64,000 nt of DNA from positions 7,037 to 71,036 of the forward strand of contig JAKSQO010000001.1 in assembly GCA_024404095.1 (NCBI GenBank). The letters are read 5' to 3'. This document shows, piece after piece, positions 946-24,633 of the stretch. The translations under genes and the position numbers were made by a program. How positions within the stretch are numbered: the stretch's first letter is position 1; every line of letters starts with the position of its first letter. This stretch comes from Clostridia bacterium. GTDB lineage: Bacteria > Bacillota > Clostridia > Oscillospirales > Acutalibacteraceae. The notes under the pieces are model-generated. The model saw only the letters and a program-made list of their open reading frames with translations, had not been told where the DNA came from and made no database searches.

Positions 946-1676
946 TGAGAAAAACGCTTTTTCTCTCGGATTCAGAGCCTGTTGTTGTCGAAAAGCTGCG
1001 CCGGCTCGGATACGATACGCTGGTTTGCCGTCCGAATAATGATATAACAGATTCGGTATCAACTCACGCTGATTGCGCATTGTTCAGTCCCGATAATAAG
1101 ACGTATTTCTGTGAACAGGGTAATTACAGCAATATTGTTAATTATTTCACAAAAGGCGAGGGCCAACTGATAAACGGGGATATAACAATTATACCGATAA
1201 ATGGTATTAAATCGCCGTATCCTGATGATGTCAGGCTTAACTGCAAGTGTTTTGGCAAAAATATTATTTGCAATACAAATTATATTTCCAAGGAAATTGC
1301 TGATTTTGCACATTTCAACACCTGTGATCTGATTCATTGTAACCAAGGCTATTCAGCTTGTTCAACTGTTAAGCTGTCCGATAACGCCGCCATAACCGAT
1401 GATTCATCTGTTTATAATACGCTCAGTTCAATTGGAATAGATTGTATCAAGGTAAGCAAGGGTTCAGTTAAACTGAAAGGATTTGATTACGGTTTCATCG
1501 GCGGATGCTGCGGTCTGACTGAGAAAAACAAAATTGTATTTACAGGCAGCATTGATAAACACGCTGATGCGGAACTTATTAAATCATTTCTGAGCAAGCA
1601 CAGAGTTGAGTACATCAATCTGACTGACGGAGAACTGATTGATATCGGCGGTATTATACCATTATACAGTATATAA
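945..1676 (+). CDS. Conserved hypothetical protein, tentatively DUF6873-like (guanidino-modifying-enzyme fold)
   Basis: 243-aa ORF translationally coupled to the upstream ORF. It has a Cys-containing GFIGGCCG motif near the C-terminus and a STHADCALF motif. The family assignment is from memory and was not searched. Confidence 0.45.
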   Translation: MRKTLFLSDSEPVVVEKLRRLGYDTLVCRPNNDITDSVSTHADCALFSPDNKTYFCEQGNYSNIVNYFTKGEGQLINGDITIIPINGIKSPYPDDVRLNCKCFGKNIICNTNYISKEIADFAHFNTCDLIHCNQGYSACSTVKLSDNAAITDDSSVYNTLSSIGIDCIKVSKGSVKLKGFDYGFIGGCCGLTEKNKIVFTGSIDKHADAELIKSFLSKHRVEYINLTDGELIDIGGIIPLYSI

Positions 1677-1681
1677 TAAAG

Positions 1682-1727
1682 AAAGCTCCGAAAAGCTTTA
1701 ATTCAGTTTTTTAGGAGCTTTTTTTAT
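1682..1727 (+). terminator. Probable rho-independent terminator
   Basis: AAAGCTCC (1682-1689) pairs with GGAGCTTT (1714-1721) and is followed by a T run. The loop is long, so this is only moderate. Confidence 0.45.
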
Positions 1728-1831
1728 ATTTTTCCTCCCCTTAATTATACAAAATATTTCTTTTATATAATCTCTTGATTTTTTTACAGTCCTCTGCTAT
1801 AATAAAGAAAATCAGAAAAAATGGTGATTTT

Positions 1832-2821
1832 ATGAGAAAAGAAGAAATTAAAGAGCTTCCCGAAAGTGTCAGAGATTTTCTGCACTATATGAATGTAATA
1901 AAAAACAAGTCCGAGCTTACTGTTCTTGAGTATGCTTCGGATCTGAGAATGTTTTTTCGTTTTATGTACGTTGAACGCGGATTGGTTTCCAAGGACGTTG
2001 ATTTTGATAATATCGCTATCTCTGCGATTGACCTTGATTTTATAAAAACAATTACAATTTCCGACGCATACAGCTTTCTCGCTTACTGTAAGAATGAACG
2101 TCACAACGATGCTGCTTCACGCTCAAGAAAAGCCTCTACATTACGTGGTTTCTTTAAATATCTTAGTGTCAAGACAAAACAGATTGATGAAAATCCCATG
2201 GAAGAGCTTGAATCGCCCAAGACGAAGAAATCCCTGCCGAAGTATCTTACTCTTGACGAAAGTGTTGACCTTCTTAACTGTATTGACGGTAAATTTAAGG
2301 AACGTGACTACTGCATAATCGTATTCTTTCTTAACTGCGGTCTGCGTCTTGCTGAGCTTGTAGGGCTGAATTATAACGATATAAAGTCCGACAACTCAAT
2401 GCGAGTTACAGGCAAGGGCAACAAGGAACGTATTATTTATCTCAATGAGATGTGCATTAACGCATATAATGAGTATATGAAGGTGCGTCCGAATGACGGT
2501 GTAAAGGATAAATATGCCCTGTTCTTAAGCGCAAGGAAATCCCGTATCAGCCCCAAAACAGTTCAGTATATCGTTAAAACCTTCCTTGACAAAGCAGGTC
2601 TTGGCGGCAAGGGCTTGTCCACGCATAAGCTTCGCCATACCGCCGCAACGCTTATGTATCAGCAAGGCAATGTCGACATCCTGCTTATAAAAGAGCTGCT
2701 CGGTCACGAAAACCTTGCTACAACAGAGATTTATACACATATCGTCGACTCTCAGCTCAAGGATGCTGTTTCTTCTAATCCGCTTAACGCTTTATCAAAA
2801 GACAAAAAGTCCGACAAATAA
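1832..2821 (+). CDS. Tyrosine site-specific recombinase, XerC/XerD family
   Basis: I place the start at the ATG at 1832, inside track ORF 1775-2821. The catalytic signature is present: GLRLAEL (Arg), HKLRHTAAT (His-x-x-Arg) and LLGHENLATTEIYTH (His, Tyr). There is an N-terminal SAM-like core-binding domain. Confidence 0.85.
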   Translation: MRKEEIKELPESVRDFLHYMNVIKNKSELTVLEYASDLRMFFRFMYVERGLVSKDVDFDNIAISAIDLDFIKTITISDAYSFLAYCKNERHNDAASRSRKASTLRGFFKYLSVKTKQIDENPMEELESPKTKKSLPKYLTLDESVDLLNCIDGKFKERDYCIIVFFLNCGLRLAELVGLNYNDIKSDNSMRVTGKGNKERIIYLNEMCINAYNEYMKVRPNDGVKDKYALFLSARKSRISPKTVQYIVKTFLDKAGLGGKGLSTHKLRHTAATLMYQQGNVDILLIKELLGHENLATTEIYTHIVDSQLKDAVSSNPLNALSKDKKSDK

Positions 2822-3427
2822 GTATTCAAGCATTGTTTTGATAACGGCTGACGCGATGATATAAATGTAGTATTTGAGATAGGATTTGTAGAATTTTTTA
2901 AAGCTGTAATCAGAAAGCTTACCGTTTTTTGAAATGCATCTGAGCATAAATTCAGACATACTTATGCTTTCACAGCTGCAAAGCACAAGCCCCGTCAGCG
3001 ACAGCACGGCGTACGGAAACACAAGCATAACGCAGTAAGCAAGCCCTTTGAGCGTGTAATGATCGTACATAAAGTAAGAAATCATTCCGATAAGATACGA
3101 ATAACACAGCGGAATAAAATTGACTGCAAAGCCGCCGTACGCACTCAGCCCGAGAAAGAACAGCACAACCGCAAAGACTGTCGGCGGCAGAAGTGAGCTT
3201 ATAAAAGACGAAAGAGGTGTCGAAGCTCCCGAGGAAAGCGTTGACAAGAACAGATCCGTCACTTTTAAAAAGAGCTTCCCCTCCCCTTTGCCGCTCAACG
3301 CTCCGAGCACAAGCCCGGCGACCGAGAATGTCACAGGCACAACTATCTTCCAATTCAGAACAAAATCATTGACTCTGACGCTGTATTTATGCAGGTTCAG
3401 AGTCTTTTTTATTACGGGTGTTGACAT
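2795..3427 (-). CDS. spoIIM: Stage II sporulation protein M (SpoIIM)-like polytopic membrane protein
   Basis: Internal ATG at 3427 is preceded by AGGAGG (rc of 3431-3441 region). The product is 210 aa with about 5 TM helices. The longer track ORF (to 3826) would run into upp. Adjacency to a xerD-like gene mirrors the Bacillus spoIIM-fur-ripX neighbourhood. Confidence 0.5.
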   Translation of the reverse strand: MSTPVIKKTLNLHKYSVRVNDFVLNWKIVVPVTFSVAGLVLGALSGKGEGKLFLKVTDLFLSTLSSGASTPLSSFISSLLPPTVFAVVLFFLGLSAYGGFAVNFIPLCYSYLIGMISYFMYDHYTLKGLAYCVMLVFPYAVLSLTGLVLCSCESISMSEFMLRCISKNGKLSDYSFKKFYKSYLKYYIYIIASAVIKTMLEYLFVGLFVF

Positions 3428-5886: not shown

Positions 5887-7083
5887 ATGAATAAATTTAT
5901 ATATTGGTTCAAGGATATCATGCGCGGCACGGATAAGCTCCTGCTCGGCATCTGTCTTGTTCTTTCATCAATAGGTATTCTTATGGTTTACAGCGCAACA
6001 CGGGTAAATCTGAAAGAAAATATGATTATTTCACGTGACGCACGTACAATGATTATTGCTGTTTTTCTCGGCGTATGCATTGCGGTTGTAATGTCACTTG
6101 TCGATTACGAGGCTGTCACGCGACTATGGCCCATAATTGCCGTTGTCTGTCTCGGGCTGATGGTTTCGTTGTTTTTCTTCGGTAATTCTCCGAGCGGCCG
6201 ACAGGACGCTATTTCGTGGCTTAAGTTCGGCAGCTTCTATTTTCAGCCGTCAGAGCTGTTGAAAATCGGTTTTATTATTACGTTTTCTGTTCATCTTGAC
6301 GCAGTAAAGGATGAAATCAACAGCCTAAAAAACGTAATTTTCCTCGGAATACACGCTATGATAGCAATCGGTCTTGTTATTCTTACGGGTGACCTCGGTT
6401 CGGCTCTTGTTTTCATGGTTATGACAATCGGTATGCTTTTTGTCTGCGGACTCTATCTTCGCTATTTCATTTTCGGCGCAGGTGCGGTTATCGCGGTTGC
6501 TCCCATTGCTTGGTTTGAATTTCTTTCCGACTTTCAGAAGCAGAGATTTATGGCTATTTATTCCCCTGCTTCGCTTACCGAGGCTACATATAAGGATGTT
6601 ATTCTTCAGCAGAAGCTTTGCCTTAACGCAATCGGCTCGGGCAAAATATTCGGTCAGGGGCTTTTTCAGGGCACTTATACTCAGGCGGGAACAGTTCCCG
6701 AAAGTCAGAACGATATGATTTTCTCTGCTATCGGCGAGGAATTAGGTTTTGTCGGCGCGGTCGGTGTTCTTCTGGTTCTTACGCTTCTTATCATCAAAAT
6801 TGTCTGCATCGGTCAGAAAGCGGTTTCACTTACAGGCAAGCTTATCTGCAACGCCGTTGCCGTAATGATCGCAACTCACATTGTTGTCAACGTCGGAATG
6901 TGTCTGAATGTTCTTCCCTGTGTCGGAATTACGCTTCCGTTTATGAGTGCGGGCGGTTCGTCCAATCTTTGCATATATATCGCAATCGGACTTGTTCTCA
7001 GCGTCTACCGCTCATCCAAGGTCGGCAAGCCGATTGATTACAGGCACGGCAAGCTTTATTCACCGTTTACAGAAAGCTATTGA
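5887..7083 (+). CDS. FtsW/RodA/SpoVE (SEDS) family peptidoglycan glycosyltransferase
   Basis: 398 aa and polytopic. It has QPSELLKI, ESQNDMIFS and LPFMSAGGSS motifs characteristic of SEDS proteins. Confidence 0.85.
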   Translation: MNKFIYWFKDIMRGTDKLLLGICLVLSSIGILMVYSATRVNLKENMIISRDARTMIIAVFLGVCIAVVMSLVDYEAVTRLWPIIAVVCLGLMVSLFFFGNSPSGRQDAISWLKFGSFYFQPSELLKIGFIITFSVHLDAVKDEINSLKNVIFLGIHAMIAIGLVILTGDLGSALVFMVMTIGMLFVCGLYLRYFIFGAGAVIAVAPIAWFEFLSDFQKQRFMAIYSPASLTEATYKDVILQQKLCLNAIGSGKIFGQGLFQGTYTQAGTVPESQNDMIFSAIGEELGFVGAVGVLLVLTLLIIKIVCIGQKAVSLTGKLICNAVAVMIATHIVVNVGMCLNVLPCVGITLPFMSAGGSSNLCIYIAIGLVLSVYRSSKVGKPIDYRHGKLYSPFTESY

Positions 7084-11816: not shown

Positions 11817-13250
11817 TCATTTTAATTCATTAGATTTTCTTACATATGCGTAAACTGGCTCAAGCTTTTCCTTGGTGAGCGGGTATGCAAATTTGTAAAG
11901 AATGAAGATTAACGTGTATGTTATTGCAGGGATAACGGTGCATACTGTCAGGATTCCTTCGCTGACACCCTTTACATAGCCTGCGTTTGCCATAACATTT
12001 ACGTCATAGCCAACCTTTGCGAGAAGTGTAAGTCCGCCGTAGTCAGCCGCTGTCTGACCGAGCTTACGGCAGAATGTATAAACAGCGTATATTGCGCTCT
12101 CACCCTTGATACCTGTCTTATATTCCTGATAGTCAATAACGTCGGCGACAACAGCCCAGTTTGTGATTGAAACAAACGAATAGCCGAAGCCGATAACAAA
12201 CAGGAATAGAATGAAAAGCCATGACTGGTCGGGTCTGGGCTTGACAACAAAGGTTGCAATAGCGGCAGCAGCTGAGAAAAACGCACCGAAGCCGCTGAGC
12301 TCCTTTTTTCCGTAACGCTTTACAAGCTTCGGTACAAACGGAATCATAATCGCCATAGGCAGATACTGAGCGATTGTACCGAGGACAGAAAGACTTGTGT
12401 TGCAGAAGTAGTTTTTATAAAGATACTGGTTGAGCGAAGCGAACTGAAGCTGACCGCTGATAAGTATACCTGTGACTGCGAGTACGATAAACGGACGGCT
12501 CTTGAACATTGCGCCGTAAGTCTTTTTGAAATCGACATTCGGCTCTGCCGCCGAGGGAACGCGTTCCTTTGTTGTGCCGTAGCAGGCAAAATAGAATATG
12601 ACCGCACAAACAGCCATAGCAACAGCGAAAATAAACATACCGTTTGCATTGGCAACATTGTATGTACCGCCGTTTCCGTCCTCGACCTTAGTATAGATAA
12701 TGTACGGCGCAAGAAGAAGCGGAGCGGCGCCGCCGATACCGCCGCCGATTGTGCGGAAAGTTGAAAGCAGGGTTCTGCCGTCGGGGTCATCGGTTATAAC
12801 AGAAGCGAGCGAGCCGAACGGTACGTTCATTCCCGTATAAAGCATACCGAAAGCGATATATGTAACGTAAGCAAAAGCGAGAATTATCCAGTCTTTTTCA
12901 GTAAATGAGCGGATATTCATAAAGCAGAGAAGCTGTGAAGCCGCAAGAGGAATCGCAATCCACTTTAAGTACGAGCGGTATTTGCCGTTTTTATCGGGTT
13001 TTCTTTTTGCGACAACCGCACCCCACAGCGGGTCATTGATTGCGTCCCACAGACGGGTGAAAAGAAAGAGATTGGCAACCTTTTTCGGCGCAATCTTTAA
13101 AACATCGGTGTAGAAAACCTTAAGGAATGACGAAACATATGTCAGTACAAACAGATTACCTGCGTCACCGAGCATATATCCGAGTCCTTCTTTGATTCCT
13201 ATTTTATTCGGGTGAGTGTTCTGCGAGGATTCTTTAGCTTTTTTTGACAT
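11817..13250 (-). CDS. Glycoside-pentoside-hexuronide (GPH):cation symporter family transporter
   Basis: 477 aa with 12 predicted TM helices and the GPH signature TRLWDAINDPLWG. Confidence 0.85.
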   Translation of the reverse strand: MSKKAKESSQNTHPNKIGIKEGLGYMLGDAGNLFVLTYVSSFLKVFYTDVLKIAPKKVANLFLFTRLWDAINDPLWGAVVAKRKPDKNGKYRSYLKWIAIPLAASQLLCFMNIRSFTEKDWIILAFAYVTYIAFGMLYTGMNVPFGSLASVITDDPDGRTLLSTFRTIGGGIGGAAPLLLAPYIIYTKVEDGNGGTYNVANANGMFIFAVAMAVCAVIFYFACYGTTKERVPSAAEPNVDFKKTYGAMFKSRPFIVLAVTGILISGQLQFASLNQYLYKNYFCNTSLSVLGTIAQYLPMAIMIPFVPKLVKRYGKKELSGFGAFFSAAAAIATFVVKPRPDQSWLFILFLFVIGFGYSFVSITNWAVVADVIDYQEYKTGIKGESAIYAVYTFCRKLGQTAADYGGLTLLAKVGYDVNVMANAGYVKGVSEGILTVCTVIPAITYTLIFILYKFAYPLTKEKLEPVYAYVRKSNELK

Positions 13251-13399
13251 AAAATAACCCCTTTATTACAATAAATGTATAATTATTATATTATATGAAT
13301 AATTCATTTTCAAGAATTATTCAGTAATAATTGTTGAAAATGTAGAATTTTAAAATTTGTTGTGCTATAATCAGAAAAACGGCTAAAAGGGATGATTTT

Positions 13400-13546
13400 A
13401 TGTCGGATGAAAAAGAAATACACGATAATAAAGAACTTTATGAACGCCAGGTCGAGATGCTTAAAATGTTCCTTGAAAAAGGAGTTATATCAAAGGCTCA
13501 GTTTGACAAGAGCTACGGCGACCTGACGAAGAAAATGAAGCTGTGA
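13400..13546 (+). CDS. Small SHOCT-like protein (48 aa)
   Basis: This ORF is not in the track because it is under 60 aa. It reads MSDEKEIHDNKELYERQVEMLKMFLEKGVISKAQFDKSYGDLTKKMKL. An AAGGGA RBS lies 6 nt upstream and the ORF ends 9 nt before the next gene. The LEKGVISKAQF pattern resembles the SHOCT motif. Confidence 0.4.
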   Translation: MSDEKEIHDNKELYERQVEMLKMFLEKGVISKAQFDKSYGDLTKKMKL

Positions 13547-13555
13547 GGTAAGGCT

Positions 13556-14698
13556 ATGTACGAGGATATTAAAAGCGGTATTGACCCTTTTGATGAGGAT
13601 GATATTGACGAGATAAAATATTACAGGACTGCTGACGGAAAAATTAAAATTGTATTTTATTTCAGCGTTGCCTGCTTCAGAGCAACACTGCGTATCGGCG
13701 ATAAGGTGTTCGTTGACGGCTTCAACGATAAAGAGCCGTATGACAACAACACACACTTTTTCTATGTTCCCGAGGAGCTTCTGACAGCTGAAAGCGAGCT
13801 GCTGTTCACCGCTGAGGATGCTTTTGAGGATGGCGATTTACTCTACATTGAGCTTACATACGGTGAACCCGAATTCGCTGACAGAGATGCGCTCTTAGCT
13901 GAATACAACAGCCATATTGAAACTGTGAAAGAGGAAACCGAGGTGGTATGTGACGGCGTTGTTTATTCTCATATGCTCTGCGAGGACAAAAATAACGCGC
14001 CTGTTCATATGTTTCTTCTTGAGGTTGACAGCAGTAAGGCTTCACTTTATGTCGGTACTCCCGATGACGGATATGATAATGTTGAGGTCTGTGCAAAGGT
14101 TCCCGAAATGATTAACTCGGCGGTTAAGAACGGACATAACGCCGTTGCTGCCGTCAATGCGGATTTCTTTGATATTTTCGGAAATAAAAGTCCGTCGGGA
14201 CTGTGCGTAAAGAACGGCAGAGTTGTTGCCAACGCAGACAGCAGCCGACCGTTTATCGGAATTAAAAAGGACGGAACTCCCCTGCTGACCACACTTACAG
14301 AAAATCCCGATGTAATAAACGAGCTTGACTGCGCAGCCGCAGGACTTGAGATGATTGTCAAAGACGGCAAAATCTTTGAATGGGGCGAGCTTGAACCGTT
14401 CAGCTATGTAAGACATCCGAGAACAGCCGCAGGACTGACAAAGGACGGAAAGATACTTCTGCTTGTTGTTGACGGCAGAATACCCGATTACTCAAATGGC
14501 GCAACTCTTGTTGACCTTGCTGATTTTATGATTTCAAGAGGTGCTGACAGAGCGCTGAACCTTGATGGCGGCGGTTCGTCTGTAATTTATACAAAACGCG
14601 GCGCTGAATTTGTTCTGCACTCAAATCCCGCAGACCTTTTCCGACCGTTTGATAAGCTTATAAGAGATGAATTTAACTGTATTATTGTCACAAAGTGA
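13556..14698 (+). CDS. Phosphodiester glycosidase family protein (DUF2233/NAGPA-like)
   Basis: 380 aa with motifs AVNADFFD, GLCVKNGRVV, HPRTAAGLTKDGKILLLVVDGR and ALNLDGGGSS. Confidence 0.75.
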   Translation: MYEDIKSGIDPFDEDDIDEIKYYRTADGKIKIVFYFSVACFRATLRIGDKVFVDGFNDKEPYDNNTHFFYVPEELLTAESELLFTAEDAFEDGDLLYIELTYGEPEFADRDALLAEYNSHIETVKEETEVVCDGVVYSHMLCEDKNNAPVHMFLLEVDSSKASLYVGTPDDGYDNVEVCAKVPEMINSAVKNGHNAVAAVNADFFDIFGNKSPSGLCVKNGRVVANADSSRPFIGIKKDGTPLLTTLTENPDVINELDCAAAGLEMIVKDGKIFEWGELEPFSYVRHPRTAAGLTKDGKILLLVVDGRIPDYSNGATLVDLADFMISRGADRALNLDGGGSSVIYTKRGAEFVLHSNPADLFRPFDKLIRDEFNCIIVTK

Positions 14699-19115: not shown

Positions 19116-21389
19116 TTAAAGCTTATTTCTGATAATCTTGCCGCTTGTCGTTTTCGGAAGCTCATCCTTGAATACAACAATTCTCGGATACTTATAAGGT
19201 GCGGTGTGTTCCTTAACGTAAGTCTGAATTTCCTTTTTAAGTTCTTCGGTCGGTTCAGTTCCCTTGGTAAGAACAATGCTCGCCTTAACAACCTGACCTC
19301 TGATTTCATCCGGAGCGGCAGAAACTCCGCACTCAAGAACATACGGAAGCTCCATGATAACGTTTTCAATCTCAAATGGTCCGATACGGTAGCCTGATGA
19401 TTTGATTACGTCGTCAACACGGCCGACATACCAGTAGAAGCCGTCCTCGTCCTTCCATGCGACATCGCCTGTATGGTACATTCCGTCATGCCAGCATTCC
19501 TTTGTTTTGTCCTCAGCGCCGTAGTAGCCGATGAACAGACCGCACGGAATTGTATCACCTGTACGAACGACAATTTCGCCCTCCTCACCTACTCCGACCG
19601 GCTTGCCGTCAGCGTCAACAAGGTCGATATCATAAGACGGAACAGGCTTACCCATTGAGCCGAGACGGTGGTCTGAACCGAAGAGATTGCCGATAAGAAG
19701 TGTTGATTCACTCTGACCGAAGCCCTCCATAACCTTAAGCCCCGTGAGCTTGTTGAGCTGTCGGAATACTTCGGGATTGAGTGCCTCACCTGCTATTGTT
19801 GCGTGCTCAACCGAGCTGAGATCGTACTTTGTGAGATCTTCCTTAATCATCATACGGTACATTGTCGGCGGACAGCAGAATGTTGTAATATTATATTTTT
19901 TAAACATCGGAAGTATTTCTGCGGCGTTGAAGCGGTCAAAATCGTAAACAAAAATCGCGCCCTCGCAGAGCCATTGACCGTAGAGCTTACCCCACATAGC
20001 CTTTGCCCAGCCTGTGTCGGAAATGGTAAGATGAAGTCCGTTGGGGTTAACGCAATGCCAGTAGTTGGCTGTAACAAAATGGCCGAGCGGATATTTGAAG
20101 TTATGAGTTGCGATTTTCGGATAGCCTGTTGTGCCCGAAGTAAAGAACATGAGCATCATATCACTGCCGCAGGCTGAATCCTCGGTGCGCTCAAATGTAT
20201 TTGAATAGAGCTTATATTCCTCGTTGAAGTTGTGCCAGCCCTCACGCTCACTGCCGACAATAATCTTTGTCTTAACAGTCGGAGAATTCTTAATTGCAAG
20301 ATCAACCTGATTTGCGGAATCACCGTCAGAGGTGCAGATGACAGCGCTTACTCCTGCCGCATTAAAGCGGTAGTCAAGGTCGTGCTCCTGGAGAAGATAT
20401 GTTGCGGGAATGGCGATTGCGCCGAGCTTATGAAGAGCGAGAATCGAGAACCAGTACTGATAGTGACGTTTAAGTATAAGCATAACTCTGTCACCCTTTT
20501 TAATGCCGAGCGACTTAAAGTAATTTGCGGTTTGTGAGGAATATTCCATCATGTCTCTGAATGTGAATCTTCTCTCCTGCTTGTTGTTGTCAACGTGTAT
20601 CATGGCTGTCTTATCGGGACATTTCCTGCCGAGGCCGTCAACAATATCGAATGCGAAATTGAACATCTCTTCATTTTCATATGAGAGTGACAGCAGTGCG
20701 CCGTTCTCGTCCTCTTTCGGATGAATAAAGTTATGATAAATACGCTTGCCTGTGCCTGTTCTCTTCGGTGAATTGTCATCAATCTTGTTGATTTCTGACG
20801 GAGTTTCGCCCGACGGATTGAAAACAAGAGCATAGAAAATTGTTTCCTTATCACCAACGGAAATCATACCGTGAGGTGTGGATGAATCGTAGTAAATTGT
20901 GTCGCCTGCGTTGAGAATTTCAACGTGATTGCCGACCTGAACACGAAGAGTACCGCTTACAACAATGTCAAGCTCCTGTCCCTCATGGGTTGTAAGAGCG
21001 ATATCGTTATCACCCTTGCCGGGGTCGCACTTAACAAAAAGCGGTTCGCAGATTTTATTTTTAAATGTGGAAGCAAGGTTATAGTATTCCATGCCGTGCG
21101 CATGGTCAATCAGCTGTCCCTCGCCGTTTCTTGTAACAGTATAGGAGGCAAGAACGGGGCTTTTACCTTCGATAATATCTGTTACATCAACATTGAAAGC
21201 GATAGCACATCTGTAAAGGAAAGCGAAGTTAAGATCTTTTTCGCCACGCTCGCAGGCGATATATTCTTCGATTGTAACATCCGTCTTTTCAGCCATCTCA
21301 GCGGGTGTGAAGCCGACAACCTCGCGAAGCTCACGGATACGCTGAGCCATTTCGCTGATTTTGAAATCAAGTCCTGTCATTTCTTTCAT
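19116..21389 (-). CDS. Fusion protein: XRE-type HTH + cupin domain + AMP-forming acyl-CoA synthetase (ANL family, medium-chain/ACSM-like)
   Basis: Uninterrupted 757-aa ORF. The HTH is MAQRIRELREVVGFTPAEMAEKTDVTIEEY, and the cupin is HEGQELDIVVSGTLRVQVGN...YYDSSTPHGM. ANL cores are present: FTSGTTGYPK, YHTGD, GRVDDVIKSSGYRIGPFEIE and LPKTTSGKIIRNKL. Confidence 0.85.
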   Translation of the reverse strand: MKEMTGLDFKISEMAQRIRELREVVGFTPAEMAEKTDVTIEEYIACERGEKDLNFAFLYRCAIAFNVDVTDIIEGKSPVLASYTVTRNGEGQLIDHAHGMEYYNLASTFKNKICEPLFVKCDPGKGDNDIALTTHEGQELDIVVSGTLRVQVGNHVEILNAGDTIYYDSSTPHGMISVGDKETIFYALVFNPSGETPSEINKIDDNSPKRTGTGKRIYHNFIHPKEDENGALLSLSYENEEMFNFAFDIVDGLGRKCPDKTAMIHVDNNKQERRFTFRDMMEYSSQTANYFKSLGIKKGDRVMLILKRHYQYWFSILALHKLGAIAIPATYLLQEHDLDYRFNAAGVSAVICTSDGDSANQVDLAIKNSPTVKTKIIVGSEREGWHNFNEEYKLYSNTFERTEDSACGSDMMLMFFTSGTTGYPKIATHNFKYPLGHFVTANYWHCVNPNGLHLTISDTGWAKAMWGKLYGQWLCEGAIFVYDFDRFNAAEILPMFKKYNITTFCCPPTMYRMMIKEDLTKYDLSSVEHATIAGEALNPEVFRQLNKLTGLKVMEGFGQSESTLLIGNLFGSDHRLGSMGKPVPSYDIDLVDADGKPVGVGEEGEIVVRTGDTIPCGLFIGYYGAEDKTKECWHDGMYHTGDVAWKDEDGFYWYVGRVDDVIKSSGYRIGPFEIENVIMELPYVLECGVSAAPDEIRGQVVKASIVLTKGTEPTEELKKEIQTYVKEHTAPYKYPRIVVFKDELPKTTSGKIIRNKL

Positions 21390-21420: not shown

Positions 21421-21688
21421 ATAAAAAACCCGTCCCAAAGTAAAAATCTTTGAGACGAGTTATAAACCCGCGGTACCACTCAAATTGCATTCCGAAGAAT
21501 ACCTCTTACGGACTCTGACAAGTCCTGTGCTTTTACGCAGCCATACGGAAGGGTTCTACTCGCCTTTGCTTTCTTCCCTCCGGCTCAGAAACTACAAACC
21601 TGCAACTTTCATTTATCGGTTTTCACCAATACCGACTCTCTGAGAAATTACTTGATTACAGGCACTTTTCGTCAACGCCTTTTCTTTT
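21421..21688 (-). promoter_or_regulatory. T-box riboswitch leader (tRNA-sensing transcription attenuator)
   Basis: Minus-strand elements are as follows. A K-turn-like GUUGA...CUGAGCC closes the Stem I base. The AGAGAG box plus distal loop AUUGGUGAAA lies at plus 21621-21644. The T-box sequence AAUUUGAGUGGUACCGCGGGU lies at plus 21466-21486. The terminator CGUCUCAAAG/CUUUGGGACG plus U6 lies at plus 21421-21457. UUUGAG/CUCAAA pairing gives the competing antiterminator. Confidence 0.85.
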
Positions 21689-21695
21689 TTATCTG

Positions 21696-21724
21696 ATTTT
21701 AACATGACAAAATGTAATTGTCAA
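21696..21724 (-). promoter_or_regulatory. Sigma-A-type promoter driving the T-box leader
   Basis: On the minus strand: TTGACA (21719-21724), 17-nt spacer, TAAAAT (21696-21701). Confidence 0.65.
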
Positions 21725-21733
21725 TAGCCTATT

Positions 21734-23650
21734 TTAAACTTCTTCACCAATTTTTTCATGAAGTTCTTCCCATAAGCTATACAAATCCTCAAGATTGTCG
21801 TTTTTTTGCTGAAGCTTTTCTGTAAGCTCTATGATTTTTTCGTAATCCGACTGCGTTTCCGGCAGATTCATAAGCTCTTGAATCTCCTCAATTTCAGCCT
21901 CCGTCAGGGCAATCTGTTCCTCGGTTTTAGTCAGCTGAGTTTTCATTTTGCGAAGCTCTGCCGCCTGCTCCTTTTTAAACTTATAGTCATTCACCTTTTT
22001 AACAGGCTGAGCCGATTTTACAGGAGCAGCCTGTGTTGAAGAAGCGGATTTCCTCTCAATATAATAATCGTAATTCCCGAGGTACTCAGTCAATCCGTCA
22101 GAACTTAGCTCAAGAATTCGTGTGCTGAGCTTATTTATAAAATATCGGTCATGCGAAACAATCAGCATTGTTCCGCTGTATTCAAGCAGAGTGTTTTCAA
22201 GCTCCTCGCGCGAAAATGCGTCAAGATGATTTGTCGGCTCGTCAAGCAAAAGCAGATTATATCCACCGAGCATGAGCTTGAGAAGAGCGATTCTCGCTCT
22301 TTCACCGCCGCTGAGCTTGGACAGCTGCTTGAACACCTCATCACCCTTAAAGAGAAAAGCGGCAAGCGAGCTGCGGATTTCCGTCTGCGACATTCTCGGA
22401 TAAGCCGTCCATATCTCGTCAATTGCGGTTTTATTTAAATCAAGCTTTGCCTGAACCTGGTCAAAATAGCCCTTAAACAGGTTTTCACCGAATGAGAAAG
22501 TGCCCGAATCGGCACGGTATTCACCCATAAGCGTCTTTAACAGAGTGGTTTTGCCGCAGCCGTTATCGCCCAGAAGAAAGACACGCTCTCCCCTTGTAAT
22601 GTGCATTTTAACATTAGAAAAAATCTCTTTACTGCCGAAGCTCTTTGAAAGTCCGTCGGCAATAATTACATCATTTGAGCTGACAGATTTCGGCTCGAAA
22701 TTCACTCTGATTCTTTCAACCTTACTGTCGGGAATAACAAGCTGTTCCTTAATGCGGTCAATCTGTTTGAGCTTGCTTTCAGCCGTGCGGATGTTTTTCT
22801 CTCTGTTCCATTGTCTCTGCTGAGCAACAACGCCCTCAAGACGCTGAATCTCACGCATATCATTTTCATATTTCTCTTCAATCGCCTTCTGCTCGGCTTT
22901 TTTCTTGATAAGAAATTCAGAATAATTGCCCTTGTAGCATCTGATTTTTCGGTTTTCAAGCTCAACGGTTTTATCTGTGATTTTATCAAGAAAATAACGG
23001 TCATGCGATATTACAAAAACAGCACCGTTAAAATTTTTAAGAAAGTTTTCGAGCCATTCAACACTCTTGATATCGAGGTGATTTGTAGGCTCGTCAAGAA
23101 GCAGAAGATTGCAGGGCGAAAGAAGAAGCTTCGCAAGGGCAACCTTTGAACGCTGACCGCCGCTGAGCTTGTCGGTTGTAAGTGAAAAATCATCCTCTGT
23201 GAAGCCAAGTCCCAAAAGCGCACTACGTGTGCGGCTTTTATATGTCAGACCGCCCTCGTTGTTGTATTTAAGCGTCAGTTCATCCTGAATTCTGATATTT
23301 TCTTCAAGATTGCCGATATTATTTGAGAGCTTTGCGTTGACCTCGGCAAGCTTGATTTCAAGTTCACGCAAATAATCAAAAACGCTGACAAGCTCCTCAT
23401 AAAGAGTTCTGCCCTTGCTCGAGCAGGTGTGCTGCTCCATATAGCCGACAGTAACATCCTTGCTCTTGATAACAGCACCCTCCGTGGGCTCGAACTCCCC
23501 TCTTATCATGCGGAAAAGGGTCGTCTTTCCGACTCCGTTTGAGCCGATAAAGCCAACCTTTTCTTTTTCCTGAATATCAAAATTTACATTAGAGAACAGC
23601 TCACGTTCACCGAATGAGAACCCGAGGTTCTGAAAATTTAAAATAACCAT
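21734..23650 (-). CDS. ABC-F family ATPase (two ABC domains, no TMD; translation-factor type)
   Basis: I place the start at the ATG at 23650, which has GAGG 6 nt upstream. The track ORF begins at a GTG at 23662. Walker A motifs are GSNGVGKTT and GDNGCGKTT, and signatures are LSGGQ and LSGGE. There is an ~80-aa interdomain linker and a C-terminal coiled-coil extension. Confidence 0.9.
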   Translation of the reverse strand: MVILNFQNLGFSFGERELFSNVNFDIQEKEKVGFIGSNGVGKTTLFRMIRGEFEPTEGAVIKSKDVTVGYMEQHTCSSKGRTLYEELVSVFDYLRELEIKLAEVNAKLSNNIGNLEENIRIQDELTLKYNNEGGLTYKSRTRSALLGLGFTEDDFSLTTDKLSGGQRSKVALAKLLLSPCNLLLLDEPTNHLDIKSVEWLENFLKNFNGAVFVISHDRYFLDKITDKTVELENRKIRCYKGNYSEFLIKKKAEQKAIEEKYENDMREIQRLEGVVAQQRQWNREKNIRTAESKLKQIDRIKEQLVIPDSKVERIRVNFEPKSVSSNDVIIADGLSKSFGSKEIFSNVKMHITRGERVFLLGDNGCGKTTLLKTLMGEYRADSGTFSFGENLFKGYFDQVQAKLDLNKTAIDEIWTAYPRMSQTEIRSSLAAFLFKGDEVFKQLSKLSGGERARIALLKLMLGGYNLLLLDEPTNHLDAFSREELENTLLEYSGTMLIVSHDRYFINKLSTRILELSSDGLTEYLGNYDYYIERKSASSTQAAPVKSAQPVKKVNDYKFKKEQAAELRKMKTQLTKTEEQIALTEAEIEEIQELMNLPETQSDYEKIIELTEKLQQKNDNLEDLYSLWEELHEKIGEEV

Positions 23651-23710
23651 AACATACCTCACAAAGTACGTTTATTTTACTACATATGTGAGAATAAAAC
23701 AAGTATTAAG

Positions 23711-23757: not shown

Positions 23758-24414
23758 TCATTCATCACAATTTTCATTATAACAAGCATTGACTGCTTCG
23801 GCGAATATTGAACGGGAATGCTTATTCGGATCATCATTGCTATTTTTCTTGCGGATGTATAGTGCGTCCAGTTCGTCTTTCAGCCCATTATCTTTTATCC
23901 ATTGAAAGCGTTCCGGAAGCATATAGAATCCTTGAGATTGTTCTAACCACGAGTAAGTATTCTGCTTCTTGTTATAGTGAATGTATTCTTGACAATCGTA
24001 TCCGTCATCATCCTCATAGTCATTAACAAAGGCAAAGTCCACACTATGAAGGATACGGGAATTCTTGCGATCTTTAACCTTGATGGTCAAAACGCGAGTT
24101 GAGTCTTCGGCAAAGTCGTAGCCATACCGATGTGCGAATTTATCCAATGATTGCTTGAACAGTAACTTGATCTGTTTTGCCTTGAAACGGTTTTCTTCAT
24201 CATTTGGATAAATGTTGATGTCAAAATCGAAACCAATATTTGATTTTGCGTCATAGGTAATCATGTTACGAGAGTAACTGCCAACAGGCTCATGCTGAAA
24301 AGTGTATTGCTTTCGTAAGTCGTCATGAACAAGGCTGAGAATTTCCATAAGGTCAGAATAGGCAGACTTAACTTGGGGCGAATGTTTTGATATGAACTTA
24401 AAATCATGTTTCAT
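23758..24414 (-). CDS. Pol-beta superfamily nucleotidyltransferase-like protein (SMODS/CD-NTase-like pattern), function unknown
   Basis: 218 aa. The G-S...D-x-D pattern is PVGSYSRNMITYDAKSNIGFDFDINIY, and a later acidic residue sits on a beta strand (HSVDFAFV). The gene has an AAAGGA RBS plus its own promoter and terminator, and is AT-rich by eye. Confidence 0.5.
   Translation of the reverse strand: MKHDFKFISKHSPQVKSAYSDLMEILSLVHDDLRKQYTFQHEPVGSYSRNMITYDAKSNIGFDFDINIYPNDEENRFKAKQIKLLFKQSLDKFAHRYGYDFAEDSTRVLTIKVKDRKNSRILHSVDFAFVNDYEDDDGYDCQEYIHYNKKQNTYSWLEQSQGFYMLPERFQWIKDNGLKDELDALYIRKKNSNDDPNKHSRSIFAEAVNACYNENCDE

Positions 24415-24556: not shown

Positions 24557-24633
<77 letters not shown>

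Follow-up and report, generated by a model that had tools for sequence, protein, structure and literature searches.

A predicted valine-specific T-box riboswitch in front of an HTH-cupin-acyl-CoA synthetase gene in gut and rumen Clostridia

We analysed a stretch of 64,000 nucleotides (the window) from a Clostridia bacterium of the family Acutalibacteraceae (assembly GCA_024404095.1, contig JAKSQO010000001.1, positions 7,037-71,036 of the forward strand), concentrating on a T-box leader RNA and the single gene that follows it. The leader lies on the minus strand, in the 345-nucleotide gap between the stop codon of an ABC-F ATPase gene and the ATG at 21389. The gene starting at this ATG encodes a 757-residue fusion of a helix-turn-helix (HTH) domain, a cupin and an AMP-forming acyl-coenzyme A (acyl-CoA) synthetase. 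The specifier codon of the leader is predicted to read valine, and the enzyme is most likely an isobutyrate-CoA ligase. Coordinates are window positions unless the identifier of a related locus (L001-L080) is given. The leader and its surroundings comprise the following features:

21734-23662, minus strand: ABC-F ATPase open reading frame (ORF), whose stop codon precedes the leader region
21724-21696, minus strand: sigma-70-type promoter, with the -35 box TTGACA at 21724-21719, a 17-nucleotide spacer and the TG-extended -10 box TAAAAT at 21701-21696
21684-21448, minus strand: T-box leader, Rfam RF00230, 93.3 bits, E = 4e-19, model positions 1-219 of 219
21679-21582, minus strand: Stem I, from the sequence and the Rfam alignment
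21679-21671 and 21587-21582, minus strand: kink-turn (K-turn) base GGC-GUUGA / UGA-GCC, from the sequence
21641-21636, minus strand: AGAGAG bulge of Stem I, from the sequence
21630-21621, minus strand: Stem I distal loop AUUGGUGAAA, from the sequence
21595-21593, minus strand: predicted specifier codon GUA (valine), from alignment columns and Rfam, followed by the purine G21592 and then by the UUUC strand of the lower helix
21486-21466, minus strand: T-box sequence AAUUUGAGUGGUACCGCGGGU, from the sequence and the Rfam alignment
21478-21475, minus strand: UGGU of the T-box bulge, able to pair with an ACCA-3' tRNA end carrying discriminator A73
21484-21449, minus strand: antiterminator, consisting of helix UUUGAG/CUCAAA, the 7-nucleotide bulge UGGUACC and helix GCGGG/CUCGU
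21461-21415, minus strand: intrinsic terminator, a 14-bp stem at 21461-21427 plus a U run
7-13 nucleotides 5' of the ATG at 21389, minus strand: ribosome-binding site AAAGGUG, from the sequence

The promoter agrees with the consensus at 11 of 12 positions, in line with the near-consensus promoter (TTGACA-17-TAAAAT) proposed in the initial annotation of this region, and a TG stands before its -10 box. In each of the orthologous leaders, too, a promoter of this kind (TTGACA/TGnTAnAAT) lies immediately 5' of Stem I. The Rfam match covers the full length of the T-box model and lies above its gathering score of 93 bits, upholding the claim that a complete T-box precedes an acyl-CoA synthetase-type gene on the minus strand. 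The structural parts that the initial annotation had listed, namely the K-turn base, the AGAGAG bulge, the distal loop, the T-box sequence and the terminator with its U run, were all recovered. The distal loop is of the GGUGNRA type, as membership of the T-box class requires, and the lower helix of Stem I is GAAA/UUUC in the window. The annotation had also noted that one arm of the terminator can pair alternatively with the UUUGAG of the T-box. Indeed, the 5' arm of the terminator is the 3' arm of the antiterminator, and the two structures compete for this shared strand with predicted energies of -9.3 kcal/mol for the antiterminator and -18.4 kcal/mol for the terminator (z = -7.45; 0 of 200 shuffles were as stable). 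As judged from these folds, the leader has the classic T-box arrangement, in which the antiterminator would be the weaker structure and tRNA would be needed for it to win.

The comparative set consisted of the best 80 loci among at least 580 encoded relatives, obtained in a scan of one genome per species; these loci belong mostly to Acutalibacteraceae, Oscillospiraceae and Christensenellales genomes from gut and rumen metagenomes. Three of them are too short upstream for a leader search, and the remaining 77 have enough upstream DNA. The T-box core TGGTACCGCG was found 80-270 nucleotides (mostly 80-150) 5' of the ortholog in 73 of these 77 loci. This core contains UGGU and is present in every orthologous leader with a detected T-box motif, which agrees with the earlier argument that the bulge calls for a tRNA with discriminator A73. 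The four loci with no T-box directly 5' of the ligase gene are L050, L061, L076 and L080, where the gene comes right after another coding sequence.

The structure of the leader is conserved as well as its sequence core. RNAalifold, applied to 66 leaders, recovers only well-aligned helices, and it found compensatory GC<->AU changes in 10-11 sequences for the basal helix of Stem I, AU<->GC changes in 17 and GC<->AU changes in 14 sequences for the lower helix (GAAG/CUUC), and compensatory changes in up to 31 sequences for the distal helix. The middle helices of Stem I are too variable for sequence-based alignment and are neither supported nor contradicted by this analysis. Conservation of the antiterminator and terminator was assessed in 69 leaders. 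Antiterminator positions are paired in 99.6% of 759 cells, with compensatory changes at three pairs, compared with only 39-63% of cells in shifted registers, and the terminator stem is kept in all 69 leaders.

Relatively few of these leaders reach the Rfam gathering score. At this threshold, T-boxes were detected before valine- or isoleucine-class ligase genes (the two classes are defined below) in L001, L007, L025, L044 and L073. At the E-value threshold, a T-box was found 5' of the ortholog in 11 of 11 short loci, with scores of 64-108 bits and E <= 1.4e-11. Most leaders of the family score 64-92 bits, below the gathering score (L002, L016, L018, L021, L034, L047, L048 and others), so routine annotation would miss the link between T-box and ligase. 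These sub-threshold scores probably explain why the association went unannotated.

The specifier columns were taken from an unconstrained MAFFT alignment of 68 leaders. In the triplet column, 64 leaders have GUA and 4 have GUC. The base after the triplet is always a purine (G in 61, A in 7), the base before it is U in 64, G in 2 and C in 2, and the base two before it varies more widely (U 47, C 15, A 5, G 1). GUA is also present in 5 further loci that lie outside the alignment, the gene start being mis-set there. Counting all readable orthologous leaders, 72 of 72 carry GUA (68) or GUC (4), and the window leader comes in addition to these. The Rfam alignment likewise sets GUA-G on the consensus codon-plus-purine positions, and the 3' boundary of the specifier loop is fixed because the covarying lower helix adjoins it. 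Specifier codons are known to leave a characteristic signature in alignments: invariant first bases, a synonymous third position, a purine after the codon and variable bases before it. The invariant GU, the synonymous third base, the purine that follows and the variable bases that precede match this signature and point to valine as the predicted specifier. We regard the leader as almost certainly a functional valine T-box. The initial annotation had left the choice between valine (GUU/GUA) and leucine (UUG) undecided; the valine reading holds, as GUA or GUC, and the leucine reading falls with the varying bases before the codon.

Because UGU and UUG both overlap GUA within UUUGUAG, the possibility of another amino acid (cysteine through UGU or leucine through UUG, in a shifted register) was weighed explicitly, together with that of a decaying, non-functional T-box, to which the narrow Rfam margin and a missing S-turn motif (both discussed below) might point. 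The cysteine codon is rejected since 4 of the 68 leaders have G or C before GU, destroying UGU, and the leucine codon since the base two before GU varies as counted above, whereas the exchange of GUA for GUC is synonymous and the purine after it is kept. In addition, the pairing partner of UGGU is discriminator A73; bacterial tRNA-Val carries it, while tRNA-Cys usually has U73. A shift of the register by +1 is also rejected: it would turn the codon of the valine leaders into UAG or UAA, and the paralogous leader described below yields the sense codon AUC in the unshifted register. The covarying helix also sets the boundary of the loop. Decay is hard to reconcile with the conservation of leader, antiterminator and terminator in 69 species. 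Overall, a specifier other than valine, or a leader that has lost its function, is highly improbable.

The gene under the control of this leader and its end are described by these features:

19116-21389, minus strand: ligase gene, 757 amino acids, with an HTH of the XRE type at residues 16-76, a cupin at 126-186 and an AMP-forming acyl-CoA synthetase at 255-751
20685-21389, minus strand: HTH-cupin module, residues 1-235, an N-terminal fusion to the ligase
20004-20006, minus strand: codon of Ala462, alanine in the valine class and glycine in the isoleucine class, as in Gly278 of MacsMa (3ETC)
19109-19069, minus strand: gene-end intrinsic terminator, with a 10-bp stem at 19109-19081, a 9-nucleotide loop and a U-rich tail

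The terminator at the end of the gene (-16.3 kcal/mol, z = -3.05) confirms that a single gene lies between the leader and the next terminator, and the following gene, uppP/BacA, has its own promoter-like site at 19066-19038; together these indicate that the unit is monocistronic. Pfam assigns the domains HTH_19, Cupin_2, AMP-binding (214.7 bits) and AMP-binding_C (75.6 bits) to the protein. The same architecture is widespread: of 8000 relatives from a protein search, the best 120 listed invariably combine the cupin with AMP-binding and AMP-binding_C, and an annotated HTH is present in nearly all of them.

The best NCBIfam model for the 757-residue protein is MbcS, the methylbutyryl-CoA synthetase of Staphylococcus aureus (NF047394), with 448.3 bits. 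This is far below the equivalog cut-off of 850 bits, so the protein is related to MbcS and is not its ortholog; the initial annotation had named MbcS as a precedent, which is borne out as a family resemblance and not as an equivalence. The closest solved structure is that of Macs from Methanosarcina acetivorans (MacsMa, PDB 3ETC), which matches with 613.7 bits and 52% identity over 513 residues. The preferred substrate of MacsMa is 2-methylbutyrate (PMC10455477), and MbcS acts selectively on 2-methylbutyrate and isobutyrate but poorly on isovalerate (PMC10026030). In the window protein the ligase domain is intact and highly conserved, and its AMP-binding and AMP-binding_C domains resemble those of the characterised branched-acid ligase. 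Judging by this resemblance and by the leader, the product is most likely an isobutyrate-CoA ligase, converting isobutyrate to isobutyryl-CoA.

A second version of the gene provides an internal comparison. In 42 loci (for example L073, L044, L015 and L025) two HTH-cupin-ligase genes stand in tandem, which we call the valine and isoleucine classes after their leaders. The paralog of L073 is representative:

L073, 3073-3314: isoleucine-class leader, with its own promoter and T-box, 5' of the paralog
L073, 3367-5634: isoleucine-class HTH-cupin-ligase gene, 755 amino acids, directly 5' of the valine-class gene

At the loop position where the valine-class leaders have GUA or GUC, the paralogous leader has AUC in 42 of 42 cases. 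The flanking bases vary: C 21, U 19, G 1, A 1 on the 5' side and A 21, C 17, G 4 on the 3' side. From this pattern it is a predicted isoleucine T-box. A serine reading (UCN) of the same loop was rejected, as it would need G73, as the A before UC is invariant, and as the same shift would produce stop codons in the valine leaders. The window protein is 66-86% identical to valine-class proteins and 58-66% identical to isoleucine-class proteins, which identifies it as a valine-class ortholog.

In three of the loci with no T-box directly 5' of the valine-class gene, namely L050 (near position 6001), L061 (near 5535) and L080 (near 6001), this gene follows an isoleucine-class ligase gene and an ORF of about 825 amino acids, and the ligases and this ORF apparently form one long operon. 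In L076 (near 1462), an ORF of 478 amino acids stands immediately 5' of the valine-class ligase.

The two classes were compared using 67 valine-class and 42 isoleucine-class sequences, taking positions where each class is at least 90% uniform but the two have different residues. Nine positions separate the classes. Eight lie in the HTH-cupin module (46, 60, 73, 78, 97, 100, 102 and 117), and the only one in the catalytic domain is position 462, which adjoins the conserved Trp461 of the DTGW motif. The tryptophan that aligns to Trp461 in acetyl-CoA synthetases is the floor of the acyl pocket. Alanine for isobutyrate and glycine for 2-methylbutyrate would suit acids of these sizes, alanine giving the tighter pocket, and the position is thus a candidate specificity switch. 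Only valine and isoleucine versions were found among the related loci, with no leucine-linked ligase; leucine would come from 2-oxoisovalerate via LeuA-type enzymes, not from isovalerate.

The genes that follow the ligase in relatives place it in a pathway. Operon counts refer to the 52 loci with at least 4.5 kb of downstream DNA. In 39 of these, a P-loop gene and the delta, alpha, beta and gamma subunit genes of an oxidoreductase stand directly 3' of the valine T-box ligase on the same strand, and 36 of the 39 add a branched-chain aminotransferase (BCAT). In L073, for example, one strand carries, in order, a T-box, the paralog, the valine T-box, the ortholog, the P-loop protein gene, delta, alpha, beta, gamma, the aminotransferase gene, another T-box and a LeuA-like gene, with promoters preceding both ligase T-boxes. 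The domains of the L073 oxidoreductase are a 4Fe-4S delta subunit, a POR_N/PFOR_II alpha subunit, a thiamine pyrophosphate-binding beta subunit and a POR gamma subunit, and the aminotransferase is of class IV, as Pfam agrees. With the NCBIfam VorB model, that of 3-methyl-2-oxobutanoate (2-ketoisovalerate) ferredoxin oxidoreductase (VOR), the alpha subunit scores 542.6 bits, above the cut-off of 399, and the aminotransferase passes the NCBIfam branched-chain aminotransferase model with 487 bits against 307. To get from isobutyrate to valine takes precisely these three activities: ligase, VOR and aminotransferase. VOR and aminotransferase genes were seen behind the valine T-box only, and not behind the isoleucine T-box. 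Further members of these clusters are:

L073, 8286-8954: CbiA/MinD-like P-loop protein, 222 amino acids, with the motif GHYGSGKTN; its start overlaps the stop of the ligase gene
L073, T-box 12665-12896, plus strand, 119 bits; gene 12939-14282: LeuA-like gene, with HMGL-like and LeuA_dimer domains
L025, T-box 2631-2873, minus strand, 103 bits; gene 1162-2559, minus strand: LeuA-like gene, with HMGL-like and LeuA_dimer domains

LeuA-like genes with their own T-box adjoin many of the ligase clusters. Their proteins score well under the 2-isopropylmalate synthase cut-offs, and the specifier of their leaders looks like CUC (leucine), a tentative reading. In several loci the protein after the LeuA-like gene, or fused to it, has an N-terminus that looks like a TIM barrel of the xylose-isomerase type. 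A P-loop protein of about 220 amino acids stands between the ligase and oxidoreductase genes in the 39 loci; no NCBIfam model names it, and its sole weak match is to an Fe-S cluster carrier (MrpORP). It may serve in the maturation of the oxidoreductase.

Combining these observations, we propose that the leader is a canonical T-box riboswitch that works by transcription attenuation and responds specifically to tRNA-Val. Transcription would start at the TTGACA/TAAAAT promoter. As long as tRNA-Val is charged, the 14-bp terminator would form and the transcript would end before the gene. When uncharged tRNA-Val accumulates, its anticodon would pair with the GUA in the specifier loop and its free ACCA end with UGGU, and both contacts together would stabilise the weaker antiterminator, allowing RNA polymerase to read into the single downstream gene. 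The resulting AMP-forming short branched-chain acyl-CoA synthetase, with its HTH-cupin extension, would convert isobutyrate to isobutyryl-CoA, which VOR would then reductively carboxylate to 2-oxoisovalerate. A branched-chain aminotransferase would turn 2-oxoisovalerate into valine, and 2-oxoisovalerate would also be available for leucine synthesis. We consider this mechanism as a whole, a valine T-box controlling isobutyrate activation for valine synthesis, to be probable. It retains the core of the initial annotation, which had proposed that branched acyl-CoAs feed reductive carboxylation: the VOR genes, the aminotransferase, the isoleucine paralog and the resemblance to MacsMa all support that route. 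The annotation had extended it to isobutyrate, isovalerate and 2-methylbutyrate alike, whereas the evidence obtained here points specifically to isobutyrate and valine and not to all three acids.

The same enzymes could in principle serve catabolism, with the ligase reversed and valine broken down to isobutyrate by way of 2-oxoisovalerate and isobutyryl-CoA, given that VOR and BCAT are reversible and serve amino-acid fermentation in many anaerobes. However, acyl-CoA synthetases of the AMP-forming type run in effect only towards acyl-CoA, and fermenters use ADP-forming synthetases or a phosphotransacylase and a kinase. Moreover, a T-box switches genes on when its amino acid is short, and inducing valine breakdown upon the accumulation of uncharged tRNA-Val would be counter-productive. 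An AMP-forming ligase induced by uncharged tRNA-Val makes physiological sense only in the anabolic direction, which we infer from established enzymology and T-box logic; valine breakdown is a very remote alternative. The gene is accordingly best viewed as one of amino-acid supply, a form of salvage biosynthesis, and so is not really outside the usual logic of T-boxes. The initial annotation had contrasted the target with aminoacyl-tRNA synthetase, biosynthesis and transport genes. It was right that the target is an acyl-CoA synthetase, and this view of its role softens the contrast.

Several observations weigh against the proposed valine supply mechanism. The window leader exceeds the Rfam gathering score by just 0.3 bits, a marginal excess, and in its Rfam alignment the specifier loop lacks the usual S-turn GAA. 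No tRNA-Val gene, which would need the anticodon UAC and discriminator A73 to suit the leader, was found in the window, which has only tRNA-Pro and tRNA-Met genes, or in 60 related loci. A tblastn search of the 64-kb window with VOR alpha, beta and gamma, BCAT, the P-loop protein and the LeuA-like protein returned only the ligase itself, with no second ligase. Similarly, the closest relatives, L001-L006, have the valine T-box and the ligase with no VOR, aminotransferase or second ligase gene adjacent. Finally, the protein reaches 448 bits with the MbcS model, far short of the 850-bit equivalog cut-off. For the window genome, the mechanism implies that VOR and BCAT are encoded elsewhere in the genome.

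The absence of linkage in the window and in L001-L006 would also suit a different use of the enzyme under a genuine valine T-box, namely the supply of branched acyl-CoA primers for branched-chain fatty acids. MbcS, whose model matches the protein best, has this role in S. aureus (PMC10026030). We find this use unlikely. Control by uncharged tRNA-Val suits amino-acid supply and not lipid homeostasis, the VOR genes stand directly 3' of the ligase gene in three quarters of the operon loci, mostly with BCAT, the paralog is under an isoleucine T-box, and the protein is not an MbcS equivalog.

The N-terminal module of the protein raises the question of a further regulatory layer. Sequence searches of this module against PDB and NCBIfam gave generic HTH matches only. 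For residues 1-235, AlphaFold gave a model of moderate confidence, with a mean pLDDT (predicted local distance difference test) of 73.8. Foldseek matched this model to the Vibrio cholerae HTH_3 regulator 1Y9Q (E = 7.5e-14) and to the iron enzymes HppE, HEPD and MPnS, in which an HTH-like part accompanies a cupin (E = 4e-13 to about 1e-8), with low TM-scores (template modelling scores) of 0.35-0.45. According to these matches, 1Y9Q and HppE have the same two-domain fold as the N-terminal 190 residues, with His...Glu...His in the cupin, and the difference here is the fusion to a ligase. H135, E139 and H173 are invariant in the cupin and look like a cupin metal site; they resemble the HppE triad. 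A perfect inverted repeat, TGACAA-N7-TTGTCA, lies over the -35 box (21705-21723, minus strand). It was considered as an operator for the fused HTH and rejected as a chance occurrence, nothing similar being conserved in 38 orthologous promoters.

The concentration of eight of the nine class-separating residues in this module, its likeness to the regulator 1Y9Q and to metal-dependent cupin enzymes such as HppE, and the invariant histidines and glutamate could also mean that valine shortage is sensed as proposed, but that the enzyme uses another short acid or a valine-related compound, or that the fused protein acts mainly as a regulator through its HTH-cupin part. This we judge rather unlikely, since the ligase domain is intact and highly conserved and shares 52% identity with a branched-acid ligase, the VOR and BCAT partners define a pathway that requires an input of isobutyryl-CoA, and the Ala/Gly switch beside Trp461 follows the T-box class.

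The mechanism centred on isobutyrate activation may nevertheless include a role for the module. Because it holds eight of the nine class-separating residues, the invariant His-Glu-His and the fold of a regulator and a metal enzyme, the ligase family might be a two-layer device, in which the T-box monitors tRNA charging and the HTH-cupin part acts as a second sensor specific to the valine or isoleucine branch. We put this forward tentatively, as a speculation that is more doubtful than probable. What the module senses could be the acid, the keto acid or the amino acid, and its response could be to bind DNA, in the manner of the 'trigger enzyme' BirA, or to gate the ligase. If the two-layer device is real, cross-fed isobutyrate and 2-methylbutyrate would be the main source of valine, leucine and isoleucine in many Oscillospirales and Christensenellales, and the paired T-boxes would be ready-made genetic markers of dependence on branched acids.

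T-boxes before biosynthesis genes are well known, and the RNA described here resembles the valine, isoleucine and leucine T-boxes that precede aminoacyl-tRNA synthetase genes and the ilv-leu operon in Firmicutes. It shares with them Stem I, the K-turn, the specifier loop, the AG bulge and the distal loop, as well as the UGGN bulge, the mutually exclusive antiterminator and terminator and an attenuation architecture, which here is read from the sequence. It differs in its target, which is an acyl-CoA synthetase and, in relatives, an operon of ligase, VOR and aminotransferase; unlike the ilv-leu operon, the operon of the relatives would make valine from an external fermentation acid and not through the acetolactate pathway. 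It also differs from known T-boxes in the missing S-turn GAA of the window loop and in the scores of most family leaders, which lie under the Rfam gathering score. A literature search, which included a 2008 in-silico survey of T-boxes, found no T-box tied to an acyl-CoA synthetase or VOR, and it found no description of the HTH-cupin-ligase fusion; earlier mentions of either elsewhere are possible. The RNA switch is canonical, and its pairing with this target gene is apparently unreported.

Rumen and gut anaerobes reductively carboxylate isobutyrate, 2-methylbutyrate and isovalerate to branched-chain amino acids, as has been known for decades from classical labelling studies. To our knowledge, the step that activates the acid is poorly assigned to genes. 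The ligase, VOR and BCAT genes of the relatives are exactly the set that this pathway needs, and in contrast to the labelling studies they identify candidate activating enzymes at the gene level, with the amino acid labelled by the T-box. Among known enzymes, MacsMa is also AMP-forming, and its DTGW/DSGW motif and CoA-site residues align with those of the window protein; it differs in being archaeal, in having no HTH-cupin extension and in carrying Gly278 where the window protein has Ala462, the isoleucine class keeping the glycine. The substrate range of S. aureus MbcS mirrors the valine and isoleucine paralogs found here, with no leucine-linked counterpart (PMC10026030). MbcS feeds fatty-acid primers; neither a fused regulatory domain nor a T-box before mbcS is met in the passages of PMC10026030 consulted, and neither was checked directly.

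The main value of these results lies in functional annotation. The amino acid that a gene serves can be read reliably from the specifier codon of its T-box, and here these codons label two paralogs, annotated merely as 'AMP-binding protein', as enzymes of the valine and isoleucine branches. From their sequences and leaders, these are most likely the isobutyrate- and 2-methylbutyrate-activating enzymes of gut and rumen Clostridia. They offer a gene-level handle on the pathway from branched acids to amino acids in a family that extends over several hundred species-level genomes. With this handle, dependence on branched-acid cross-feeding could be predicted from genomes, and the fused HTH-cupin-ligase presents a new regulatory architecture to examine.

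Beyond the leader and its gene, a 218-residue ORF with no Pfam match at E <= 0.001 occupies 23758-24414 (minus strand), between the ABC-F gene and the tRNA-Met gene at 24557-24633.

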